DNA of 64,000 bases from an uncultured Gammaproteobacteria bacterium (GTDB lineage Bacteria > Patescibacteriota > Microgenomatia > JAMCZE01). Where the stretch lies: positions 378,259 through 442,258 of the forward strand of contig CAZNUP010000001.1 in the NCBI GenBank assembly GCA_964576435.1, written 5' to 3'. The notes beneath the pieces were generated by a model. The model was not told the origin of the DNA and ran no database searches. It saw only the letters and a list, made by a program, of their open reading frames with translations. Shown here piece by piece: positions 2,076 to 29,504 of this stretch. The position numbers and the translations under genes are program-made. Numbering within the stretch: position 1 is the stretch's first letter; each line of letters starts with the position of its first letter.

Positions 2076-3251
2076 ATGGCGGTTAAAGTTCTTCTGGCCG
2101 TCTTATTTTTGCTGATGGTTCCGGCAAAGGTCTTTGCCGCTTTCCAAATAGAAAATATTTCTCCAACTGAAGTTACATCATCTGACCAAGAACTAACGCT
2201 TTTTGTTTCTGCGTCAAATCTATCTAGTAGTACTCAGTATTTTCAGGTAGCTATTACAAAAGAGGGTAATTCAAACTACTTTGGCTATACTCAGAATAAT
2301 TCCGGAAATTGGAATAAATACGCTTCCTCCCCAGATTTAAGTTCTATTTTAAGCTTCACACCAGTTGGTGGAGTTTGGAATGGTGAAATAAAAGCAAGGC
2401 TTGATGCTGGGGACAGTGGTTTTTCCGGACCAGGAACTTATCAAGTAAAGCTCTTAAAATATATTACTGCTTCAGGAACCAGTTCCAACAACTTCCCAAT
2501 TAATGTCACGTTTCAAAACCAAGTTGAAAATTCACCAATTCCAACGCAAGCCCAAGAAGTGGTCAAAGAAGAAAAAACTAATCCTACGGTTCAATTTTCT
2601 ATTCCAGGAAATTTGAAAGTAGGGGAGGAATTTGAAATTTCCTATTTACTGCAAAATTTCGAGTCCGGCTCATATTTTGTCAAAGCCCGCATTGGTAAAG
2701 ATGCTTCTCATCTAACTCTTGGACAAACAAATAATGGTGAGTGGCTAACTGATACTGACTCTTGGTCAAAATTTCCAAAAACCGATTCGGGAGGAAAAAT
2801 AAAAGTCAGGCTCTCTCCGCAGGTAGAAAGTGGCGACTATAAAATCAGGTTAAGCTTTAAAAAAGGGGACGACTCACCAATTCAATCAACTGACCAAACA
2901 GCGAATTTTAAGGAAAATCCAAATCCACAATCCGCTTCAGTGAAAGCTACACCTACAAAAGCTTCAACGGGAATAGTTTTAGCTGCCGCAAAAGTTAGGG
3001 ATTCTAAAGAATCGACAATCGAAGCTGAAATAGCTAAGCATTATGAAAACATAGACTTGTTGGGAACAAAATCAGCAAAGCCCGAATCAAGAAGAAGCAA
3101 AGTAAAAAAAGCGCTTAACCTTCTTTTGTCAAAAAAGACCGCAAATGATTTTCCAATTGGAATGTTGGTAGTTCTTTTGGGGATTGGATTACTTTGCACA
3201 AGTGGTGCCTATATTGTTTGGAGAAAATTTTTTATGTCCCAAGACGAGTAA
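2076..3251 (+). CDS. Secreted hypothetical protein with N-terminal signal peptide and a C-terminal 'LLLSKKTAN'-TM-basic tail
   Basis: Signal peptide 'LLAVLFLLMVPAKVFA'. No recognisable domain. The C-terminus reads 'LNLLLSKKTANDFPIGMLVVLLGIGLLCTSGAYIVWRKFF', which resembles a sorting signal. Confidence 0.55.
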   Translation: MAVKVLLAVLFLLMVPAKVFAAFQIENISPTEVTSSDQELTLFVSASNLSSSTQYFQVAITKEGNSNYFGYTQNNSGNWNKYASSPDLSSILSFTPVGGVWNGEIKARLDAGDSGFSGPGTYQVKLLKYITASGTSSNNFPINVTFQNQVENSPIPTQAQEVVKEEKTNPTVQFSIPGNLKVGEEFEISYLLQNFESGSYFVKARIGKDASHLTLGQTNNGEWLTDTDSWSKFPKTDSGGKIKVRLSPQVESGDYKIRLSFKKGDDSPIQSTDQTANFKENPNPQSASVKATPTKASTGIVLAAAKVRDSKESTIEAEIAKHYENIDLLGTKSAKPESRRSKVKKALNLLLSKKTANDFPIGMLVVLLGIGLLCTSGAYIVWRKFFMSQDE

Positions 3252-3529
3252 GCCAGATTCTGTTTTAGCAACAATCTATCTATGCCCAACAACTTCGGTC
3301 GTGAAGAAAGCTATTCATGGACCATTCGGTTGGTTGCAGCGGGGGGAATTATCGCGTTTCACCCTTAATTTAGCTTTAGGCTAAAAAAAGACTCGTCTCT
3401 GTGACTTTACCATTGCCGATAATTTCTTACCGTGCACCCCTGGTATTAACCAAGGCACCCTGCTTTCTGCTGTCTGGACTTTCCTGTACTAGCCGAGGCC
3501 AATACTAGTTGCTCTGTCTTGGGACCTCC
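3236..3529 (-). ncRNA. rnpB: RNase P RNA (bacterial type-A-like, reduced, ~295 nt)
   Basis: Read on the minus strand. It contains 'CAGGAAAGUCCAGAC' (P4 5' strand, compare AGGAAAGUCCGGGCUCC), 'GCAGGGUGCCUUGGUUAAUACCAGGGGUGCACGGUAAGA' (compare GGGCAGGGUGCCAGGUAACGCCUGGGGGG...GGGUGCGGUAAGAGCGCACC), 'UUAAGGGUGAAACGCG', and the 3' element 'ACAGAAUCUGGCUUAC' (compare ACAGAACCCGGCUUAUCGG). P1 pairs CCCAAGACAGAG (5') with CUCGUCUUGGG (3'). A TATAAT box lies immediately upstream on the minus strand (3532-3537). Confidence 0.8.
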
Positions 3530-3565: not shown

Positions 3566-5602
3566 ATGAAATTAGATCGCGCCCATATAGTCCAAGTCAT
3601 ATCCCTGCTCTTAATTCAGTCAGTTGTACTTTTGTTATTGTCCTTCACAACTCCAGGAGTAAAGATTGATTCCATTTGGTCTGCGATAGGAATGGCCATA
3701 ATAATCTCTGTTATAGAAAGTATTGTTTGGTGGATTTTTATTGAGTTCTTTGCCCACCTCCCAATCATTCTTTATCCACTTCTAACTTTTCTTTTAACAG
3801 GCGCTGGAGTTTTGCTGGCTGGAAATTATGTTCCAGGGGTCACAATTACTGGAATTGTCCCAGCAATTTGGATTCCAATTGTAATAACAGTGGTAAACGC
3901 TATTCTTGGTGGTCTTTTTTCTCTCGATGAGGATGAATCTTTTGATAGAAACGTTACTAGAAAAATGGTTGAAAAGTATGGACATCCTAAAAAAACAGAT
4001 ATCCCAGGTCTTCTATTTTTAGAAATTGACGGTCTAAGTATTGATACTTTAAAAATCGCCCTAGAAAGAGGAGAAATGCCAACGCTAAAAGCTTGGCTAG
4101 ATTCAGGTAGCCACAAACTTGTTTCTTGGGAAACTGATTTCACTTCTCAAACTGGAGCAATGCAAACCGGAATTCTTATGGGAAATAATGTGGACATTCC
4201 CGCTTACAGGTGGTGGGATAGAGCAACTGGGAAAATGATTATGTCAGGTAATCCCAAAGATGCTAAAAATATTGAGGCCAGGCTTTCAAGTGGTAAAGGT
4301 TTACTTTCAAATGGTGGTGCTTCAAGAGGAAACATGTTTAGTGGTGATGCGACAGAGTCACTCTTTACAATGAGTGCCATGTTGAATAAAGGGCGGGGGA
4401 GAGGACCAGGGTTCTATTTCTATCTTGTTAATCCATTTGTCGTAGCAAGACTCATAACTAGATTTATTATCGAAATAATCAAAGAGTGGTATGAAGCCTG
4501 GGATCAAAGAAGAAGATATAAAAATGGGTCCAGAGAAGATAAATATATAGTTAAATCTAGAAATTTAGGCTACGCATTTCTTCGCGCCTTTATGGGACCA
4601 TTCCTCCAAGACTTAACGACCTATGCAGTAATTAGTGATGTTATGCGTGGTGTTCCAGCAATTTATGCTTTATATGCTGGCTACGATGATCTTGGACATT
4701 TTGCAGGAATGCGATCAAGAGAAGGGTATGAGGCACTTCATGAAGCAGATAGATATTTCAATAGAATTCAAAAGGCTCTAAAGTATGCGCCAAGACCATA
4801 CAATGTTGTGGTTTTATCAGACCATGGACAAAGTGAAGGCCCAACATTCCAAAGTGCATATGGTGAGAGTCTTGATTCACTAGTCAAAAAACTTGTTGGT
4901 GGGGAAGTCCTTGCTTCCATGGACACAAACGAGGCATGGGACAACTTAAATGCTGTTTTGACTGAATCAACTCATGGTGATACTAAATCAGCTAAAGTTG
5001 TAAGGAAAGCTCTATCCAAAAAAACCAAAGACGGTATAGTCCAAGTTGGTCCAGATAGAGACGATAAAGAAAAGACCTTGGATGACAAGAAAGCAGAAGA
5101 AGCAAATATTGTTATTTTTGGATCAGGCAGTACTGGATTAATCTATTTCAAAAATGCCAAGAAGCGAATGACTTATGAAGAAATTCAAAAGGCATATCCA
5201 AGTTTGATTCGAGGTTTGATTTCTCATGAAGGCATTGGCTTTTTAATTGTTAAATCCAAAACCAAAAAAACAATGGCAATTGGTAAAAACGGCGTTAATT
5301 TTGTTGATCTCGGTAAAGTTCAAGGTACTGACCCATTAAAAGTTTATGGAAAAAATGCGGCCGCCCATGTAAAGAGAGAAAGCGGATTTGACAATTGCCC
5401 AGACATTGTCGTTTGTTCAAAGTTTGATCCAAAGACAGAAGAACTTGCAGGGTTTGAAAATCAAGTCAGCCACCATGGTGGTCTAGGCGGCCCGCAAAAC
5501 AGACCATTTGTCCTTTATCCGTCATCATTAAAATATGATGGTAAACCAATTCTTTGGGCAACTGGTGTTTACAAACTTCTATACAGTTGGAGAAAAAATT
5601 GA
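3566..5602 (+). CDS. Membrane protein: N-terminal 4-TM holin-4-like region fused to alkaline-phosphatase-superfamily (type I phosphodiesterase/nucleotide pyrophosphatase-like) domain
   Basis: The first ~120 aa form about four TM helices. The remainder carries 'LLFLEIDGLSIDTL...MPTLKAW...SWETDFTSQTGAMQTGILMG', an alkaline-phosphatase/PF01663-type motif (inference). Confidence 0.65.
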   Translation: MKLDRAHIVQVISLLLIQSVVLLLLSFTTPGVKIDSIWSAIGMAIIISVIESIVWWIFIEFFAHLPIILYPLLTFLLTGAGVLLAGNYVPGVTITGIVPAIWIPIVITVVNAILGGLFSLDEDESFDRNVTRKMVEKYGHPKKTDIPGLLFLEIDGLSIDTLKIALERGEMPTLKAWLDSGSHKLVSWETDFTSQTGAMQTGILMGNNVDIPAYRWWDRATGKMIMSGNPKDAKNIEARLSSGKGLLSNGGASRGNMFSGDATESLFTMSAMLNKGRGRGPGFYFYLVNPFVVARLITRFIIEIIKEWYEAWDQRRRYKNGSREDKYIVKSRNLGYAFLRAFMGPFLQDLTTYAVISDVMRGVPAIYALYAGYDDLGHFAGMRSREGYEALHEADRYFNRIQKALKYAPRPYNVVVLSDHGQSEGPTFQSAYGESLDSLVKKLVGGEVLASMDTNEAWDNLNAVLTESTHGDTKSAKVVRKALSKKTKDGIVQVGPDRDDKEKTLDDKKAEEANIVIFGSGSTGLIYFKNAKKRMTYEEIQKAYPSLIRGLISHEGIGFLIVKSKTKKTMAIGKNGVNFVDLGKVQGTDPLKVYGKNAAAHVKRESGFDNCPDIVVCSKFDPKTEELAGFENQVSHHGGLGGPQNRPFVLYPSSLKYDGKPILWATGVYKLLYSWRKN

Positions 5603-13434: not shown

Positions 13435-14997
13435 ATGAAATGGAACATCCTATCAGAAAAATCAGATAACATTCTTGCTGTCTTATTAAAAAACCGAGGC
13501 ATTAAAGACAAGGAAGAATTTTTAAATCCAATTAATCCTTCGAACCTAACTCCAAAAGATGTAGGAATAGATTCAAAACAAGTAAAAAAAACTATAGACC
13601 GAATTAAAGAAGCTATTAAAAATCAGGAGTCAATTATTGTCTACGGAGACTATGATGCCGACGGGATGTGCTCAGCGGCAATTGTTTGGGAAACATTGGA
13701 AAAACTAGGAGCCAAGGCATTGCCATTTATTCCTCATAGAGAAAAAGACGGCTACGGTTTGTCTATTGAAGGTATAGATCAAGTTTCTGCAAGCTTAATA
13801 ATTTCAGTTGATTCAGGAATTGTTGCCCACGAAGCGGTTGATTATGCAAAATCCAAAAATATTGATGTCATAATATTGGACCATCACGAAAAACCAAAAG
13901 ATCTTCCAAAAGCTTTCGCCATAGTTCACACAACACAGCTCTGTGCAGCAGGAATTTCCTATATCTTTTGCAAAGAACTAGGTAATGAAGTTTTGGAACT
14001 TGCCGCTATAGCAACAGTTACAGATTTGATGCCATTAACAGGTGCAAATAGATCAATTGTTAAGTTTGGTCTCAAAGAGTTAAGTGCCACGGCGCGTCCT
14101 GGATTAAAAGCTTTATTTAGTGTTGCTGGAATTGACAAAGTTGGTACCTATGAAATTGGTTATATGATTGGTCCAAGGTTAAATGCCTCAGGAAGGATTG
14201 ACAGTGCTCTTCTAGGACTAAGGCTTTTATGTACAAGAGACGAGGAGAAAGCCCTTGGTTACGCAAAAGAGTTAGATCAAATCAATAAAAATCGGCAGCG
14301 CATGCTTGAAGAGCAAGTAAACCATGCATTGCTCCTAACTTTAACTAATACAGAAAAGATTATTGTGGTTGAAGACGAATCCTATCATCAAGGAGTAATT
14401 GGGCTGATAGCCGGAAAGCTAACTGAAAAGTACCATTTACCATCAATTGTTATAGCTAAAAACTCTGAGATCAGTAAAGCTTCTGCAAGATCTATTTCGA
14501 GTTTCAACATAATTGAAGCCATAAGAGAGACTGAAGATATATTAATTAATGCAGGTGGTCATCCAATGGCCGCTGGTTTCACTATTGAAACAACTCAGAT
14601 TGATAACTTTAGAAGAAGAATTATAAAAATTGCTTCTGAAAAAATCGACTCTGAAATGCTGGAAAAAGTTCTGCGTATTGATTGTGAGCTAAATTTGTCG
14701 GATTTAACCATGGACCTCTACACGGAGATTTCTCAAATGCAACCATTTGGGATAGGGAATCCGGAACCAGTTTTCGCTTCGGGTGTAACCATTCAAGATT
14801 TGAGAACTGTCGGAACTGAGGGTAAACATCTCAAGTTAAAAGCCGGAGGATTTGATTGCATAGCCTTTAATCAAGGAAAAAAAGCACAAGAATTGAAAAT
14901 AGGTAATAAAATAAACGTTGCCTATAATTTAGATTTAAATGTTTATAATGGCCGCTCAAACCTCCAGTTGAAAATTAAAGATATCGTGCTAGAATAA
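13435..14997 (+). CDS. recJ: Single-stranded-DNA-specific exonuclease RecJ (DHH/DHHA1)
   Basis: 'IVYGDYDADGMCSAAIV', 'ILDHHE', 'GGHPMAAGF' DHH/DHHA1 motifs, and the C-terminal OB-like region. Confidence 0.9.
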   Translation: MKWNILSEKSDNILAVLLKNRGIKDKEEFLNPINPSNLTPKDVGIDSKQVKKTIDRIKEAIKNQESIIVYGDYDADGMCSAAIVWETLEKLGAKALPFIPHREKDGYGLSIEGIDQVSASLIISVDSGIVAHEAVDYAKSKNIDVIILDHHEKPKDLPKAFAIVHTTQLCAAGISYIFCKELGNEVLELAAIATVTDLMPLTGANRSIVKFGLKELSATARPGLKALFSVAGIDKVGTYEIGYMIGPRLNASGRIDSALLGLRLLCTRDEEKALGYAKELDQINKNRQRMLEEQVNHALLLTLTNTEKIIVVEDESYHQGVIGLIAGKLTEKYHLPSIVIAKNSEISKASARSISSFNIIEAIRETEDILINAGGHPMAAGFTIETTQIDNFRRRIIKIASEKIDSEMLEKVLRIDCELNLSDLTMDLYTEISQMQPFGIGNPEPVFASGVTIQDLRTVGTEGKHLKLKAGGFDCIAFNQGKKAQELKIGNKINVAYNLDLNVYNGRSNLQLKIKDIVLE

Positions 14998-15039
14998 TTA
15001 AAGTAAAGCGTTGATGGCATAACAAAGCCGGAGCTTAAG

Positions 15040-15118
15040 TGAATATTTGAGAAGCAATCAAGGTGGTACCACGGAACTCTCCGTCCTTGTATACTAAATA
15101 AGTAAGGGCGGTTTTTTT
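15040..15118 (+). promoter_or_regulatory. T-box-like leader element (T-box sequence plus terminator/sequestrator hairpin) upstream of aspS
   Basis: 'AAUCAAGGUGGUACCACGG' (15056-15074) matches 15 of 19 positions of the T-box consensus AAUUAGGGUGGNACCGCGG, including the UGGN bulge. It is followed by the hairpin CCGUCCUUG...AGUAAGGGCGG (15081-15111), then a U7 tract that abuts the aspS ATG. Confidence 0.55.
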
Positions 15119-16540
15119 ATGCATATGGAAAGAACTCTAACCAAAGATACAATTAACAAAATAGGAGAAACAGTTATTCTAAAAGGCTGGGTGCAAACAC
15201 GCCGTGACCACGGAAAAATAGTCTTCATCGACTTAAGAGACAGATGGGGAGTCGTCCAGGTAGTGGCGACAGCGGATATTGCGGGGGCTGCAAACACAGA
15301 ATATGTTGTTGAAATAACAGGAAGAGTGAAAGAAAGACCAGAAAAACTTATCAACGCAAAGATAGAAACTGGAAAAATTGAACTCGAAGCAGAAAAGATA
15401 GAAGTACTCAGTAAAGCCGACACTATGCCATTTCCTATTGATACTGATGGTCTAGATATTGACGAAGAAGTTCGAATGAAGTATCGCTATCTAGATTTAA
15501 GACGCCCAAGAATGCGCAGAAATCTTGATTTGCGAAACAAAACAATTCGTAAGATGCGTCAATATTTGCTGGGTAAAGATTTCTGGGAAATTGAAACACC
15601 AATCATAACTAAAGCCACTCCAGAAGGAGCGAGAGATTTCCTTGTGCCCTCAAGAATGCACCCAGGTGAATTTTATGCGCTCCCCCAGTCGCCTCAGCAA
15701 TATAAACAACTTCTAATGGTTGCTGGAATTGAGCGGTATTTCCAAATTGCTAGGTGTTTCCGCGATGAAGATCCAAGAGCAGATAGAGCCTATGGTGAAT
15801 TCACTCAGCTTGACGTCGAAATGTCTTTCATCACCCAAGAGGAAATAAGGCGTCTTATAGAGGAGATGTATATAGAAATAGTTAAAGAAATATTTCCAGA
15901 CAAGTATATCAGCCAAGTTCCATTTCCGGTTCTAACTTATGAAGAAGCCATGAGTAAATATGGCAACGATAAGCCTGATCTACGCAAAGATAAAAATGAC
16001 CCAAATGAATTAGCATTTGGTTGGGTTGTTGATTTCCCACTATTTGAGTGGAAAGAAAAAGAAAATAGATGGGATGCAACTCATCATCCCTTTACAGCCC
16101 CCAAAAAGGAATTCATTGAAGGAATAATTAAAGCTAATCCAAAAGATAAAGACGAAAAGGTATTCCAGGAAGCTACAGCTGATCAATATGACTTTGTTTT
16201 AAATGGTTTTGAAATTGGTGGCGGAAGTATTCGAATAACAGATCCAGAACTTCAAACAAAGATATTTGAAATTTTAGGGCACACTAGAAAGCAAATTGAG
16301 GAAAAGTTTGGACACTTGATTAAAGCATTTACTTATGGCGTTCCTCCTCATGGTGGAATTGCTCCCGGTATTGATAGGTTTATCATGGCTGCACTTGGTG
16401 AGCCAAGTGTCAGAGAAGCAATGGCGTTTCCAGCTGGAGCGTCCGGTCATATTTCAGTGATGGAAGCCCCTTCTCCAGTTGAAGAAGAGCAGCTTTCTGA
16501 ACTAGGATTGAAAATCGCCCCAAAAAAGAAAAGTGAATGA
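15119..16540 (+). CDS. aspS: Aspartyl-tRNA synthetase, short archaeal/eukaryal-type (no GAD insertion), possibly non-discriminating
   Basis: N-terminal OB anticodon-binding domain and class II motifs ('FRDEDPRADR', 'GGGSIRI', 'GIDRFIMAA'). The 473-aa length matches the short AspRS type. Confidence 0.9.
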   Translation: MHMERTLTKDTINKIGETVILKGWVQTRRDHGKIVFIDLRDRWGVVQVVATADIAGAANTEYVVEITGRVKERPEKLINAKIETGKIELEAEKIEVLSKADTMPFPIDTDGLDIDEEVRMKYRYLDLRRPRMRRNLDLRNKTIRKMRQYLLGKDFWEIETPIITKATPEGARDFLVPSRMHPGEFYALPQSPQQYKQLLMVAGIERYFQIARCFRDEDPRADRAYGEFTQLDVEMSFITQEEIRRLIEEMYIEIVKEIFPDKYISQVPFPVLTYEEAMSKYGNDKPDLRKDKNDPNELAFGWVVDFPLFEWKEKENRWDATHHPFTAPKKEFIEGIIKANPKDKDEKVFQEATADQYDFVLNGFEIGGGSIRITDPELQTKIFEILGHTRKQIEEKFGHLIKAFTYGVPPHGGIAPGIDRFIMAALGEPSVREAMAFPAGASGHISVMEAPSPVEEEQLSELGLKIAPKKKSE

Positions 16541-28466: not shown

Positions 28467-29504
28467 TCAAAGTTCACATTTAATTCGAGTTTCTGCTTCA
28501 CATGTGTCTTTTCCATTTCCTCCGTTAGCTTTGTCAGTTCCTGTTTCCCCAAATAACTTGTCATCACCGTTTCCGCCGTCAATGATGTCGTTTCCCCCGC
28601 CGGCATGAACTTCATCCCTGTCATTACCAACGTCAATTGTGTCAACTCCTGATCCTGAAACTATTAGATCATTTCCATTTCCACCAATAATGTTGTTGTT
28701 CCCGTCCCCTGCAGAGATATTGTCATCCTCATTTCCCCCATCGATTGTGTCGTTGCCACTTTCTGCCGTGATAACATCTTTCCCATTTCCCCCATCAAGT
28801 TTGTTATTTCCCATTCCCCCAACGATACAGTCATCATTATTTCCTCCATCAATTGTGTCGTTTCCTTCAAGACCAATTATCAAGTCTTTTTTATTTGTTC
28901 CATTAAGTTTGTCATTACCTGAGGTGCCCATTATTGTTGAAGTGTATTGGCTGATATCCCCACAAGCTGCGGGTAGAGAAAACGCGACACCGATTTGTAA
29001 ATCAAAAACTATTTTTGTGTTTTGAAATTCATTTCCAGCATTTGGATCAAAATCTAATTTAAATGTATATTGTTTAGTGGCTCCTGAATTTAAATTGCCT
29101 AAGGCCATTCCGTCTGGTCCATTGCTTTCACTAAAAAATTGACTAAGTGTTTTCGGGCCATAAACCGTAGTAGCTCCTTGTGTGATTGTTATTTCTAAAA
29201 CTCCAGACAAACTAGCTGTTTCGGAAGTTAAAAGACCCCGAACTGCGATGGGTTTAAGGTCTGGTGATGAATTTGTGACATTAACATTCCTATTTTCCGA
29301 TTGTCCCGGTGCAGCATTAGCTATATTAAATAGTGGTGTTCCAGGTGGAACTCCCCAGTCAACTGTTAGGTCCCCAACAGCGTAAGCGGTAGGGGATTTG
29401 AAAATATTCATAACTCCCCCACTAGCCCAAACTAATATTGCTATTACTCCTAAAACAATTCCAATTCTGATAAATCTTTTTGTCATATATTTAGCATGAA
29501 CCAT
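28467..29504 (-). CDS. TasA/camelysin-like N-terminal domain fused to RTX-type (GGxGxD) calcium-binding beta-roll repeats; SipW-cognate-like signal peptide
   Basis: Signal region 'WASGGVMNIFKSPTAYAVGDLTV' (compare TasA 'GGGTWAAFNDIKSKDATFASGTLDL'). 'NIANAAPGQSE...NVTN' and '...FDLQIGVAF' are TasA-like. The C-terminal half carries at least 10 nonapeptide-like repeats 'GGNGNDLIVSG', 'GGNGDDKLFG', 'GGMGNNKLDGGNGKD'. Confidence 0.7.
   Translation of the reverse strand: MVHAKYMTKRFIRIGIVLGVIAILVWASGGVMNIFKSPTAYAVGDLTVDWGVPPGTPLFNIANAAPGQSENRNVNVTNSSPDLKPIAVRGLLTSETASLSGVLEITITQGATTVYGPKTLSQFFSESNGPDGMALGNLNSGATKQYTFKLDFDPNAGNEFQNTKIVFDLQIGVAFSLPAACGDISQYTSTIMGTSGNDKLNGTNKKDLIIGLEGNDTIDGGNNDDCIVGGMGNNKLDGGNGKDVITAESGNDTIDGGNEDDNISAGDGNNNIIGGNGNDLIVSGSGVDTIDVGNDRDEVHAGGGNDIIDGGNGDDKLFGETGTDKANGGNGKDTCEAETRIKCEL

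Follow-up and report, generated by a model that had tools for sequence, protein, structure and literature searches.

A drastically reduced T-box leader, probably responsive to tRNA-Asn, in front of aspS in a Candidate Phyla Radiation bacterium

Introduction

T-box leaders are a model system for the RNA-RNA recognition of a structured ligand. Here, we will focus on one leader of this kind, which lies between recJ and the aspartyl-tRNA synthetase (AspRS) gene aspS of a bacterium of the Candidate Phyla Radiation (CPR), in a stretch of 64,000 nucleotides (contig CAZNUP010000001.1, positions 378,259 to 442,258 of the forward strand) that we will call the window. An Asn T-box in front of an operon encoding a non-discriminating AspRS and GatCAB was reportedly described in Clostridium acetobutylicum by Saad et al. 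in 2012 (JBC); it is said to be a full-size Firmicutes T-box, and a two-codon T-box is said to have followed from Saad in 2013. As for small sensors, T-boxes with an ultrashort Stem I are known from ileS (Sherwood 2015; Battaglia 2019; Suddala and Zhang 2019, as summarised in PMC7583486). Sequences of less than 100 nt were discarded from the T-box collection TBDB, which applied its class II model to Actinobacteria alone, and our literature search found no paper that combines T-boxes with CPR or Patescibacteria.

Judged by covariation and by its match to a model built without it, the recJ-aspS spacer of the window holds a genuine T-box leader, which is drastically reduced. Our overall reading, which we hold to be reasonably probable, is that of an extremely reduced, tRNA-Asn-responsive T-box that attenuates the transcription of aspS.

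The T-box leader of the recJ-aspS spacer

The spacer is 121 nt long and runs from the recJ stop codon (14995-14997) to the ATG at 15119, the first one of aspS. A comparison of the window with Rfam at gathering thresholds reported nothing anywhere in the 64 kb. In E-value mode, against 4227 families, the T-box family RF00230 matched with 32.6 bits, against a gathering score of 93, and the E-value was 1.1e-5 on a 401-nt region and 0.0018 on both strands of the whole window. RF00230 aligns well, and with high posterior probability, only with the 3' half of the leader (Stem III, T-box sequence and antiterminator). Its Stem I was placed by Rfam into recJ (14894-15000), a placement that we rejected for its poor pairs, for the promoter lying in between and for the promoters that relatives carry on their own account. 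A covariance model built on the leaders of seven relatives, the window not being among them (model R1), matches 15005-15119 over its entire length, with 50.4 bits and an E-value of 6.8e-10 in a search of 261 kb; in this alignment, 46 consecutive model positions are deleted in the window and 0 nt are inserted. A regular expression for the T-box core and model R1 were also run over the window and 35 other loci, and neither detected another T-box.

The leader opens with an ultrashort Stem I (15007-15035, forward strand, as are all the leader modules that follow), which was delineated by RNAalifold on ten leaders and by a manual table of the kink-turn (K-turn). It consists of a K-turn that carries a 3-bp hairpin. 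The C-stem AGC/GCU (15007-15009 with 15033-15035) is followed by the K-turn bulge GUU (15010-15012), by the sheared pairs G15013.A15032 and A15014.G15031 and then by U15015.G15030, above which the upper helix GGC/GCC (15016-15018 with 15027-15029) closes an 8-nt apical loop, AUAACAAA (15019-15026). Comparison with the other leaders points to AAC, together with the conserved 3' purine A (15021-15024), as the candidate Asn specifier of this loop, which would pair with the anticodon GUU. Stem I has no distal platform: its 3 bp lead straight to the 8-nt loop, and the promoter lies directly upstream.

In the 23-nt linker, at the position of Stem III, sits a small hairpin, CUUAAGU-GAAU-AUUUGAG (15034-15051). 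This hairpin is weak and shares the last two bases of the C-stem; it is found in both the minimum free energy (MFE) and the centroid folds, it was aligned by cmscan to Stem III of RF00230, and an analogous 4-bp hairpin stands at the linker position of the related locus L164. A purine-rich string, AGAAGCAAU (15050-15058), which is identical in the window, L163 and L173, precedes helix A1 and is a candidate for the discriminator's RAG/purine string (PMC7583486, PMC11297988).

The T-box discriminator, or antiterminator (15059-15089), is aligned to RF00230 with high posterior probability, and compensatory changes are found in its helices A1 and A2. It contains the T-box core AAGGUGGUACCACGG (15060-15074), and is made of helix A1 CAAGG/CCUUG (15059-15063 with 15085-15089), the 7-nt bulge UGGUACC (15064-15070), in which UGGU is the part to pair with the tRNA's NCCA end, and helix A2 ACGGA/UCCGU (15071-15075 with 15080-15084), closed by the loop ACUC. 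Bacterial tRNA-Asn and tRNA-Asp commonly have G73 as their discriminator base, which UGGU or UGGC would fit. From the first base of Stem I to the last base of the antiterminator, the window leader spans 83 nt.

The intrinsic terminator (15081-15118) has a stem formed by 15081-15087 and 15105-15111, an inner stem formed by 15092-15095 and 15101-15104, and a tract of seven U (U7, 15112-15118) that abuts the ATG at 15119; the motif AAGGG (15104-15108) lies within its 3' arm. Its 5' arm (15081-15087) is a reuse of the 3' strands of A2 and A1, and the terminator and the antiterminator are therefore mutually exclusive. Their evaluated free energies are -13.4 kcal/mol for the MFE of the terminator segment versus -8.5 kcal/mol for the antiterminator. 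The fold of the whole spacer is not unusual (MFE z-score -0.82, with 46 of 200 shuffles folding equally well), and we dropped as insignificant a long-range pairing proposed by this whole-spacer MFE, which would join the specifier region to the U-tract and the AUG.

The initial annotation had proposed a T-box leader at this place from the letters alone, and both the E-value of RF00230 over the window and that of model R1 bear it out, with the reservation that the RF00230 match holds in E-value mode and not at the gathering score. It had set the T-box, the hairpin and U7 in a spacer of about 120 nt, with the U-tract touching the ATG, AAGGG in the 3' arm of the hairpin and AACA at about 15021-15024, all of which were found at these very positions. 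A Stem I with a specifier loop can indeed be folded, both of its helices being recovered by RNAalifold on the ten leaders. The extent that had been given, from 15040, covers the core and has to be corrected at its start, as the element begins about 33 nt further upstream.

A leader family in CPR relatives

Ten distinct leaders were found, each of them in front of aspS or of a small operon whose last gene is aspS (window, L161, L163, L164, L165, L166, L168, L172, L173-178 and L090, where L numbers denote the related loci). The leader-bearing CPR relatives have an AspRS that is 50-85% identical to that of the window, and the closer ones among them (71-85%) were reached via a protein database and contig look-ups. 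The relatives from GTDB genomes and Joint Genome Institute (JGI) metagenomes, with an AspRS 50-63% identical, are mostly without a leader, L090 being the exception; no leader was found at the CPR loci L001-L010, and no T-box at the aspS of L167, L169, L170/171 and L179/180. All the sequences closest to the window AspRS come from uncultured Patescibacteria/CPR, of the kind represented by Microgenomates, Shapirobacteria and Gottesmanbacteria.

Eight of the ten leaders are long. They begin with the ultrashort Stem I and continue with Stem II, which is S-turn-like with its invariant GAAGAA and UAGA.C strands, a CGGG-N4-CCCGU hairpin, which corresponds to IIA and the F-box, and a conserved AACAGCA. 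This is the layout of the decoding module that has been described for actinobacterial ileS T-boxes (PMC7583486). The other two leaders, those of the window and of L164, are short. The distance from Stem I to A1 is 23 nt in the window and 19 nt in L164, versus 63-77 nt in the long forms that were measured, and the span from Stem I to the end of the antiterminator is 83 and 79 nt versus 121-136 nt.

RNAalifold recovered both helices in the ten Stem I modules, with compensatory changes in 5 of the 7 pairs; 88% of the cells are paired, versus 69% in shuffles, and the covariation score of 0.498 (0.202 in shuffles) was matched by 0 of 500 shuffles. When the 3' partner was slid by 1-3 columns as a control, pairing did not exceed 40%. 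The sheared G.A of the K-turn is retained in 9 of the 10 leaders and the A.G in 6, while the C-stem covaries between AU and GC. In the discriminator, two of the four A2 pairs covary, both of them A-U/G-C, and A1 covaries as C-G/G-C/U-A and as A-U/G-C. In every one of the ten leaders, the MFE structure is the terminator, which is stabler than the antiterminator, and a run of 5-8 U directly follows the terminator hairpin.

The A2 pair that stands beside the T-box bulge (15071/15084 in the window) is A-U in four leaders and G-C in six, and never G.U. According to a review (PMC7583486), it is a G.U wobble at this pair that primarily senses the aminoacyl group, by steric means.

The upstream gene recJ (13435-14997, forward strand; TIGR00644, 471 bits) contains in its 3' end a promoter-like site on the same strand (14968-14995). 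This site is made of TTGAAA (14968-14973), a 16-nt spacer and an extended -10 element of the form TGnTAGAAT (14987-14995), and matches at 10 of 12 positions, with the TG in addition; a transcription start near 15002 can be inferred from it. The leaders of L164, L166, L168 and L172 are not preceded by recJ, and they have their own TTGACA-type promoter at an equal distance to the K-turn. Therefore, Stem I cannot reach further upstream.

What lies between the leader and aspS varies among the relatives. L161 (2673-2999, 108 aa) and L164 (2644-2988, 114 aa) each have a small open reading frame (ORF) there, and these two ORFs are weakly homologous (24% identity, E 2e-6, with a shared F.GH.R...GEP.YG) and belong to no Pfam family. 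An unrelated 90-aa ORF is found in the same place in L165, and a glyoxalase/VOC gene in L090. In L179/L180, a RelA/SpoT-type gene (1539-2963; HD_4, RelA_SpoT and TGS) stands between recJ and aspS, in the place where other lineages have the T-box, and lies 37 nt before aspS.

The AspRS and the tRNA that the leader would read

The aspS gene (15119-16540, forward strand) encodes a bacterial-type AspRS without the GAD insertion, of 473 aa if counted from the ATG at 15119; its homologues start where the second ATG lies, at 15125 (MERTL...). The protein matches TIGR00459 with 569 bits and NF001750 with 635 bits, in two stretches each that skip the GAD insertion, versus 192 bits for TIGR00458, the archaeal/non-discriminating model, whose cut-off is 368. 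Likewise, among structures of the PDB, AspRS1 of T. thermophilus (1efw) is matched with 442 bits versus 146 bits for the archaeal-type AspRS2 (1n9w). The label of archaeal-type AspRS, which the initial annotation had given to this gene, was therefore rejected: the score is below the cut-off of TIGR00458 and those of the bacterial models are far higher.

The specifier triplet is AAC in 8 of the 10 leaders and GAC in the two others (L164 and L090), a single-base difference, which is all that separates this Asn codon from an Asp codon. The triplet, NAC in general form, occupies loop positions 3-5 in 9 of the 10 leaders and is shifted by one base in L164 (positions 4-6), and the base after it is A in nine. 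Its third base is always C across the ten leaders; a third-position "C rule" is known for T-box specifiers (PMC7583486). These observations support a specifier AAC that would be read by tRNA-Asn (GUU), and the AAC that had been put forward as a possible Asn specifier remains the best candidate, at the usual loop positions and with GAC as its sole variant. An Asn specifier in front of aspS suits none but a non-discriminating AspRS. Because the leader sensor would read tRNA-Asn, the AspRS is most likely non-discriminating, which means that it would charge both tRNA-Asp and tRNA-Asn and make Asp-tRNA-Asn for GatCAB. More generally, an Asn (or Asp) specifier on aspS can serve in uncultured organisms as a sequence-only indicator of which tRNA is limiting for a non-discriminating AspRS.

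The two short leaders have the largest specifier loops, with 8 nt in the window (15019-15026) and 9 nt in L164 (2545-2553) versus 6-7 nt in the eight long forms. In the window, UAACA (15020-15024) is complementary to UGUUA, which we take to be positions 33-37 of a typical tRNA-Asn anticodon loop. Such an extended pairing might compensate for the missing Stem II.

Several relatives associate aspS with an editing function. The AspRS of L161 (P0002, 3001-4878) ends in a YbaK/ProX-type aminoacyl-tRNA editing domain, PF04073 (residues 492-610 of P0002), and a free-standing PF04073 gene lies beside aspS in L164 (4429-4899), L168 (2535-2999) and L170 (4888-5349); in L168, it sits between the T-box and aspS. 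In the window, PF04073 is neither fused nor adjacent to the AspRS. This would link an editing factor to a probably non-discriminating AspRS.

Mode of control

Transcription would begin at about 15002, and the nascent RNA would fold into the K-turn and its 3-bp hairpin, showing AAC-A in an apical loop that resembles an anticodon loop. An uncharged tRNA-Asn (GUU) would pair with AAC through its anticodon and with the UGGU bulge through its free NCCA end. This pairing would stabilise the antiterminator (15059-15089), so that the RNA polymerase would read into aspS. An aminoacylated tRNA-Asn would not stabilise the antiterminator, and the stabler terminator (15081-15118) would then form and stop transcription at U7. 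Intrinsic termination is favoured as the outcome by the conserved U-run.

Loss of the Stem II domain

We propose that the window leader descends from a longer CPR form with an ultrashort Stem I, an S-turn-like Stem II, IIA/B and the discriminator. Stem II with its S-turn and IIA/B, which are present in eight relatives, are absent in the window; by alignment with these relatives, it is a clean deletion that removed the Stem II domain in the window lineage. A 12-nt hairpin-forming segment was gained at the deletion site, and in both short leaders a small hairpin directly follows the K-turn. When AspRS sequences are placed in a neighbour-joining tree, the window falls with L161 and L163, whose leaders are both long, and L164 is found elsewhere. 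The discriminator subtypes of the two short leaders also differ (UGGUACC-ACGGA in the window versus UUGGCAUC-GCGA in L164). The separate AspRS clades and the different discriminator subtypes mean that the Stem II domain was lost twice.

What remains of the leader has been closely conserved. Between the window and L163, 26 of 29 positions are identical in the Stem I module, 39 of 42 in the purine string and discriminator (the three differences all being in the A2 loop) and 18 of 18 in the terminator 3' arm, U7 and ATG, versus 7 of 13 in the terminator loop, so that 83 of the 89 constrained leader positions are identical overall. At the four-fold synonymous sites of aspS, identity between the two is 32%, versus 30% by chance, which means that neutral sequence has been fully randomised between these genomes. 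The comparison supports purifying selection on the functional modules of the leader. On balance, we lean towards the short form being a functional switch to this day.

Alternative readings

The hairpin and U7 could be nothing but the terminator of recJ, with a likeness to T-boxes that arose by chance, and the score below the Rfam gathering score and the ordinary MFE of the whole spacer would agree with this. Such a reading is hardly credible, as it has to face the E-value of 6.8e-10 obtained with the independent model R1, the presence of a K-turn, a specifier hairpin and a discriminator that all covary in relatives, and leaders that stand behind a promoter of their own, in front of an aspS to which recJ is not adjacent. 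The covariation tests and model R1 effectively refute it, and the same leaders answer the doubt, raised in the initial annotation, that the hairpin might be a mere recJ terminator. The specifier, for its part, could be other than Asn, since ACA (Thr) is present in nine of the loops and ACC (Thr) in the tenth, and CAA (Gln) or two overlapping codons could also be read in the loop. We regard this as very improbable: the loop triplet varies only between A and G at its first base, which is exactly the difference between Asn and Asp, the downstream gene is always aspS, for which a Thr or Gln sensor has no rationale, and ACA would violate the third-position C rule. There is somewhat more to say for a mainly translational switch, in which the hairpin would sequester the start region, with AAGGG as the Shine-Dalgarno (SD) sequence and the AUG 7 nt past the stem. 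An ultrashort Stem I has so far been tied to translational T-boxes (PMC7583486), the U-tract adjoins the AUG in the window, L163 and L168, and AAGGG does lie within the 3' arm. However, the run of 5-8 U after the hairpin, conserved in 10 of 10 leaders, is the signature of an intrinsic terminator, and SD sequences are scarce in this genome, as only 7 of 51 window genes have an SD-like 4-mer within 25 nt of their start. Moreover, the start codon is found 10-120 nt past the U-run in L165, L166, L172, L173, L164 and L090, and in the window 13-16 nt separate the G-rich arm from ATG 15125, the likely true start. As for AAGGG, it is there because complementarity to the CCUU of the T-box dictates it, and the SD sequestration suggested in the initial annotation is weakened. 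A translational switch is thus improbable as the main mode of control, and the hairpin may have a secondary effect on initiation at the neighbouring AUG.

The objection that weighs most on transcriptional attenuation by tRNA-Asn is of another kind, namely that the leader may be a relic, in which the deletion of Stem II and IIA/B ended tRNA binding and left a constitutive, leaky attenuator or a vanishing leader. Several observations speak against a working switch. In published work, the binding of tRNA by RNAs with a truncated Stem I is hardly detectable when Stem II is missing, binding drops about 1200-fold when the pseudoknot is deleted and is abolished when Stem II of the M. tuberculosis ileS T-box is shortened, and T-boxes that act on transcription depend on the long Stem I platform for fast capture (PMC7583486, PMC11297988). 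The window leader has neither of these two tRNA-gripping domains, its codon is A/U-rich, and no thermodynamic compensation was found, the energies of its antiterminator and terminator being those of a long-form relative. The L164 bulge has AUC in place of the otherwise invariant ACC, its sister L169 has no leader at all, and the short forms may be a step towards loss, in keeping with a whole leader repeatedly lost in relatives (L167, L169, L170, L179). Furthermore, the RF00230 score falls short of the gathering score, no tRNA genes were found in the 64-kb window or in 15 related loci, and a scan of 27 window ORFs yielded no asnS and no gatCAB. On the other hand, aspS is essential and follows immediately on the terminator (-13.4 kcal/mol, with U7), and an unresponsive leader at such a place would be selected against or disrupted. 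All the conserved modules are intact (83 of 89 positions shared with L163) while neutral sites are saturated, so that a neutral relic would need to be very recent. The same reduced layout has also been kept in two independent lineages, and the window has gained its 12-nt hairpin-forming segment at the deletion site. Weighing these points, we consider a relic unlikely, if well worth keeping in mind, and we prefer a functional attenuator that responds to tRNA-Asn.

The full form of this preferred reading is a natural T-box of about 80 nt that senses the charging of tRNA-Asn and controls transcription with neither a platform nor the Stem II/IIA-B domain, by means of nothing but a codon loop mounted on the K-turn and the UGGN bulge, and that evolved twice, independently, from the CPR clade of terminator-type T-boxes with an ultrashort Stem I. 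We put it forward tentatively, as a possibility that falls a little short of even. If it is true, this would be the smallest known tRNA-sensing riboswitch, and it would go against two current rules, namely that Stem II is indispensable where Stem I is truncated and that a T-box acting on transcription cannot do without the platform. A functional window copy would also define the minimal tRNA sensor, which would be useful for building compact tRNA-responsive switches, and it would hint at a compensating factor in CPR bacteria, such as a high tRNA concentration, a slow RNA polymerase or a K-turn-binding protein.

Other features of the window

A match to bacterial RNase P class A RNA lies at 3233-3524 on the reverse strand (87.7 bits, E 3e-25). 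Since the gathering score is 100, a default scan misses it; the match covers 292 nt versus the 367 positions of the model and suggests a reduced CPR RNase P RNA. From about 35400 to 62700, at least 7 paralogous genes for PMT/PMT_2-type (dolichyl-phosphate-mannose-like) glycosyltransferases follow one another in a run, accompanied by a polysaccharide flippase-like gene and by several ORFs without a family. The window also encodes a protein with RTX calcium-binding repeats (28467-29504, reverse strand) and a holin-like domain with four transmembrane segments that is fused to a type I phosphodiesterase domain (3566-5602, forward strand).

Comparison with known T-boxes

When the window element is examined for what characterises the T-box classes, the UGGNACC bulge, the exclusivity of the terminator, the K-turn Stem I, AAC with its purine and the U-tract are all present, and both the long Stem I platform of class I and the Stem II/IIA-B domain of class II are absent. 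Judged by these features, it is homologous to T-boxes but fits no described class. It is invisible at the Rfam threshold: against RF00230, the window reaches 32.6 bits and L090 38.8 bits, versus the gathering score of 93, and the Stem I of the model is mostly deleted, or else misaligned into recJ. Standard Rfam annotation thus misses T-boxes in CPR genomes. The leaders of this CPR clade, in which an ultrashort Stem I goes together with an intrinsic terminator, were previously undescribed and count as a finding in themselves. As a family, they break the rule on the platform, and the window and L164 would also break the one on Stem II.

The nearest likeness is to the actinobacterial ileS T-boxes (M. 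tuberculosis, Nocardia farcinica), with which the window shares the K-turn base, the specifier in the apical loop, the lack of an elbow platform and the UGGN core. The initial annotation had compared the element to this compact type, and the comparison holds for the ultrashort Stem I with its apical-loop specifier; it does not extend to Stem II and IIA/B. The actinobacterial leaders have an S-turn in Stem II together with IIA/B, like the long-form CPR relatives, whereas the window lacks both. In the actinobacterial leaders, the IIA/B pseudoknot docks onto the duplex of codon and anticodon. Their expression platform is an SD sequestrator, in contrast to the intrinsic terminator with U7 that probably serves the window, and they read Ile in front of ileS, where the window, in a CPR bacterium, would read Asn in front of aspS. 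The sensor core of the window is 83 nt long, versus 166 nt in the M. tuberculosis construct (PMC11297988).

The glyQS T-boxes likewise have no Stem II or IIA/B; they are made of Stem I, a linker, a small Stem III and the antiterminator/terminator, and they work by attenuation. However, their Stem I is long and bears the platform of interdigitated T-loops that contacts the tRNA elbow, a platform that the window does not have, and their strong GGC:GCC duplex contrasts with the weak AAC:GUU duplex that the window would form. Finally, the Asn T-box of C. acetobutylicum reportedly follows the same physiological logic, that of a T-box reading tRNA-Asn ahead of an AspRS whose task includes charging this tRNA. 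That element is said to be full-size, and the window element, from a different phylum, would be about half as large.

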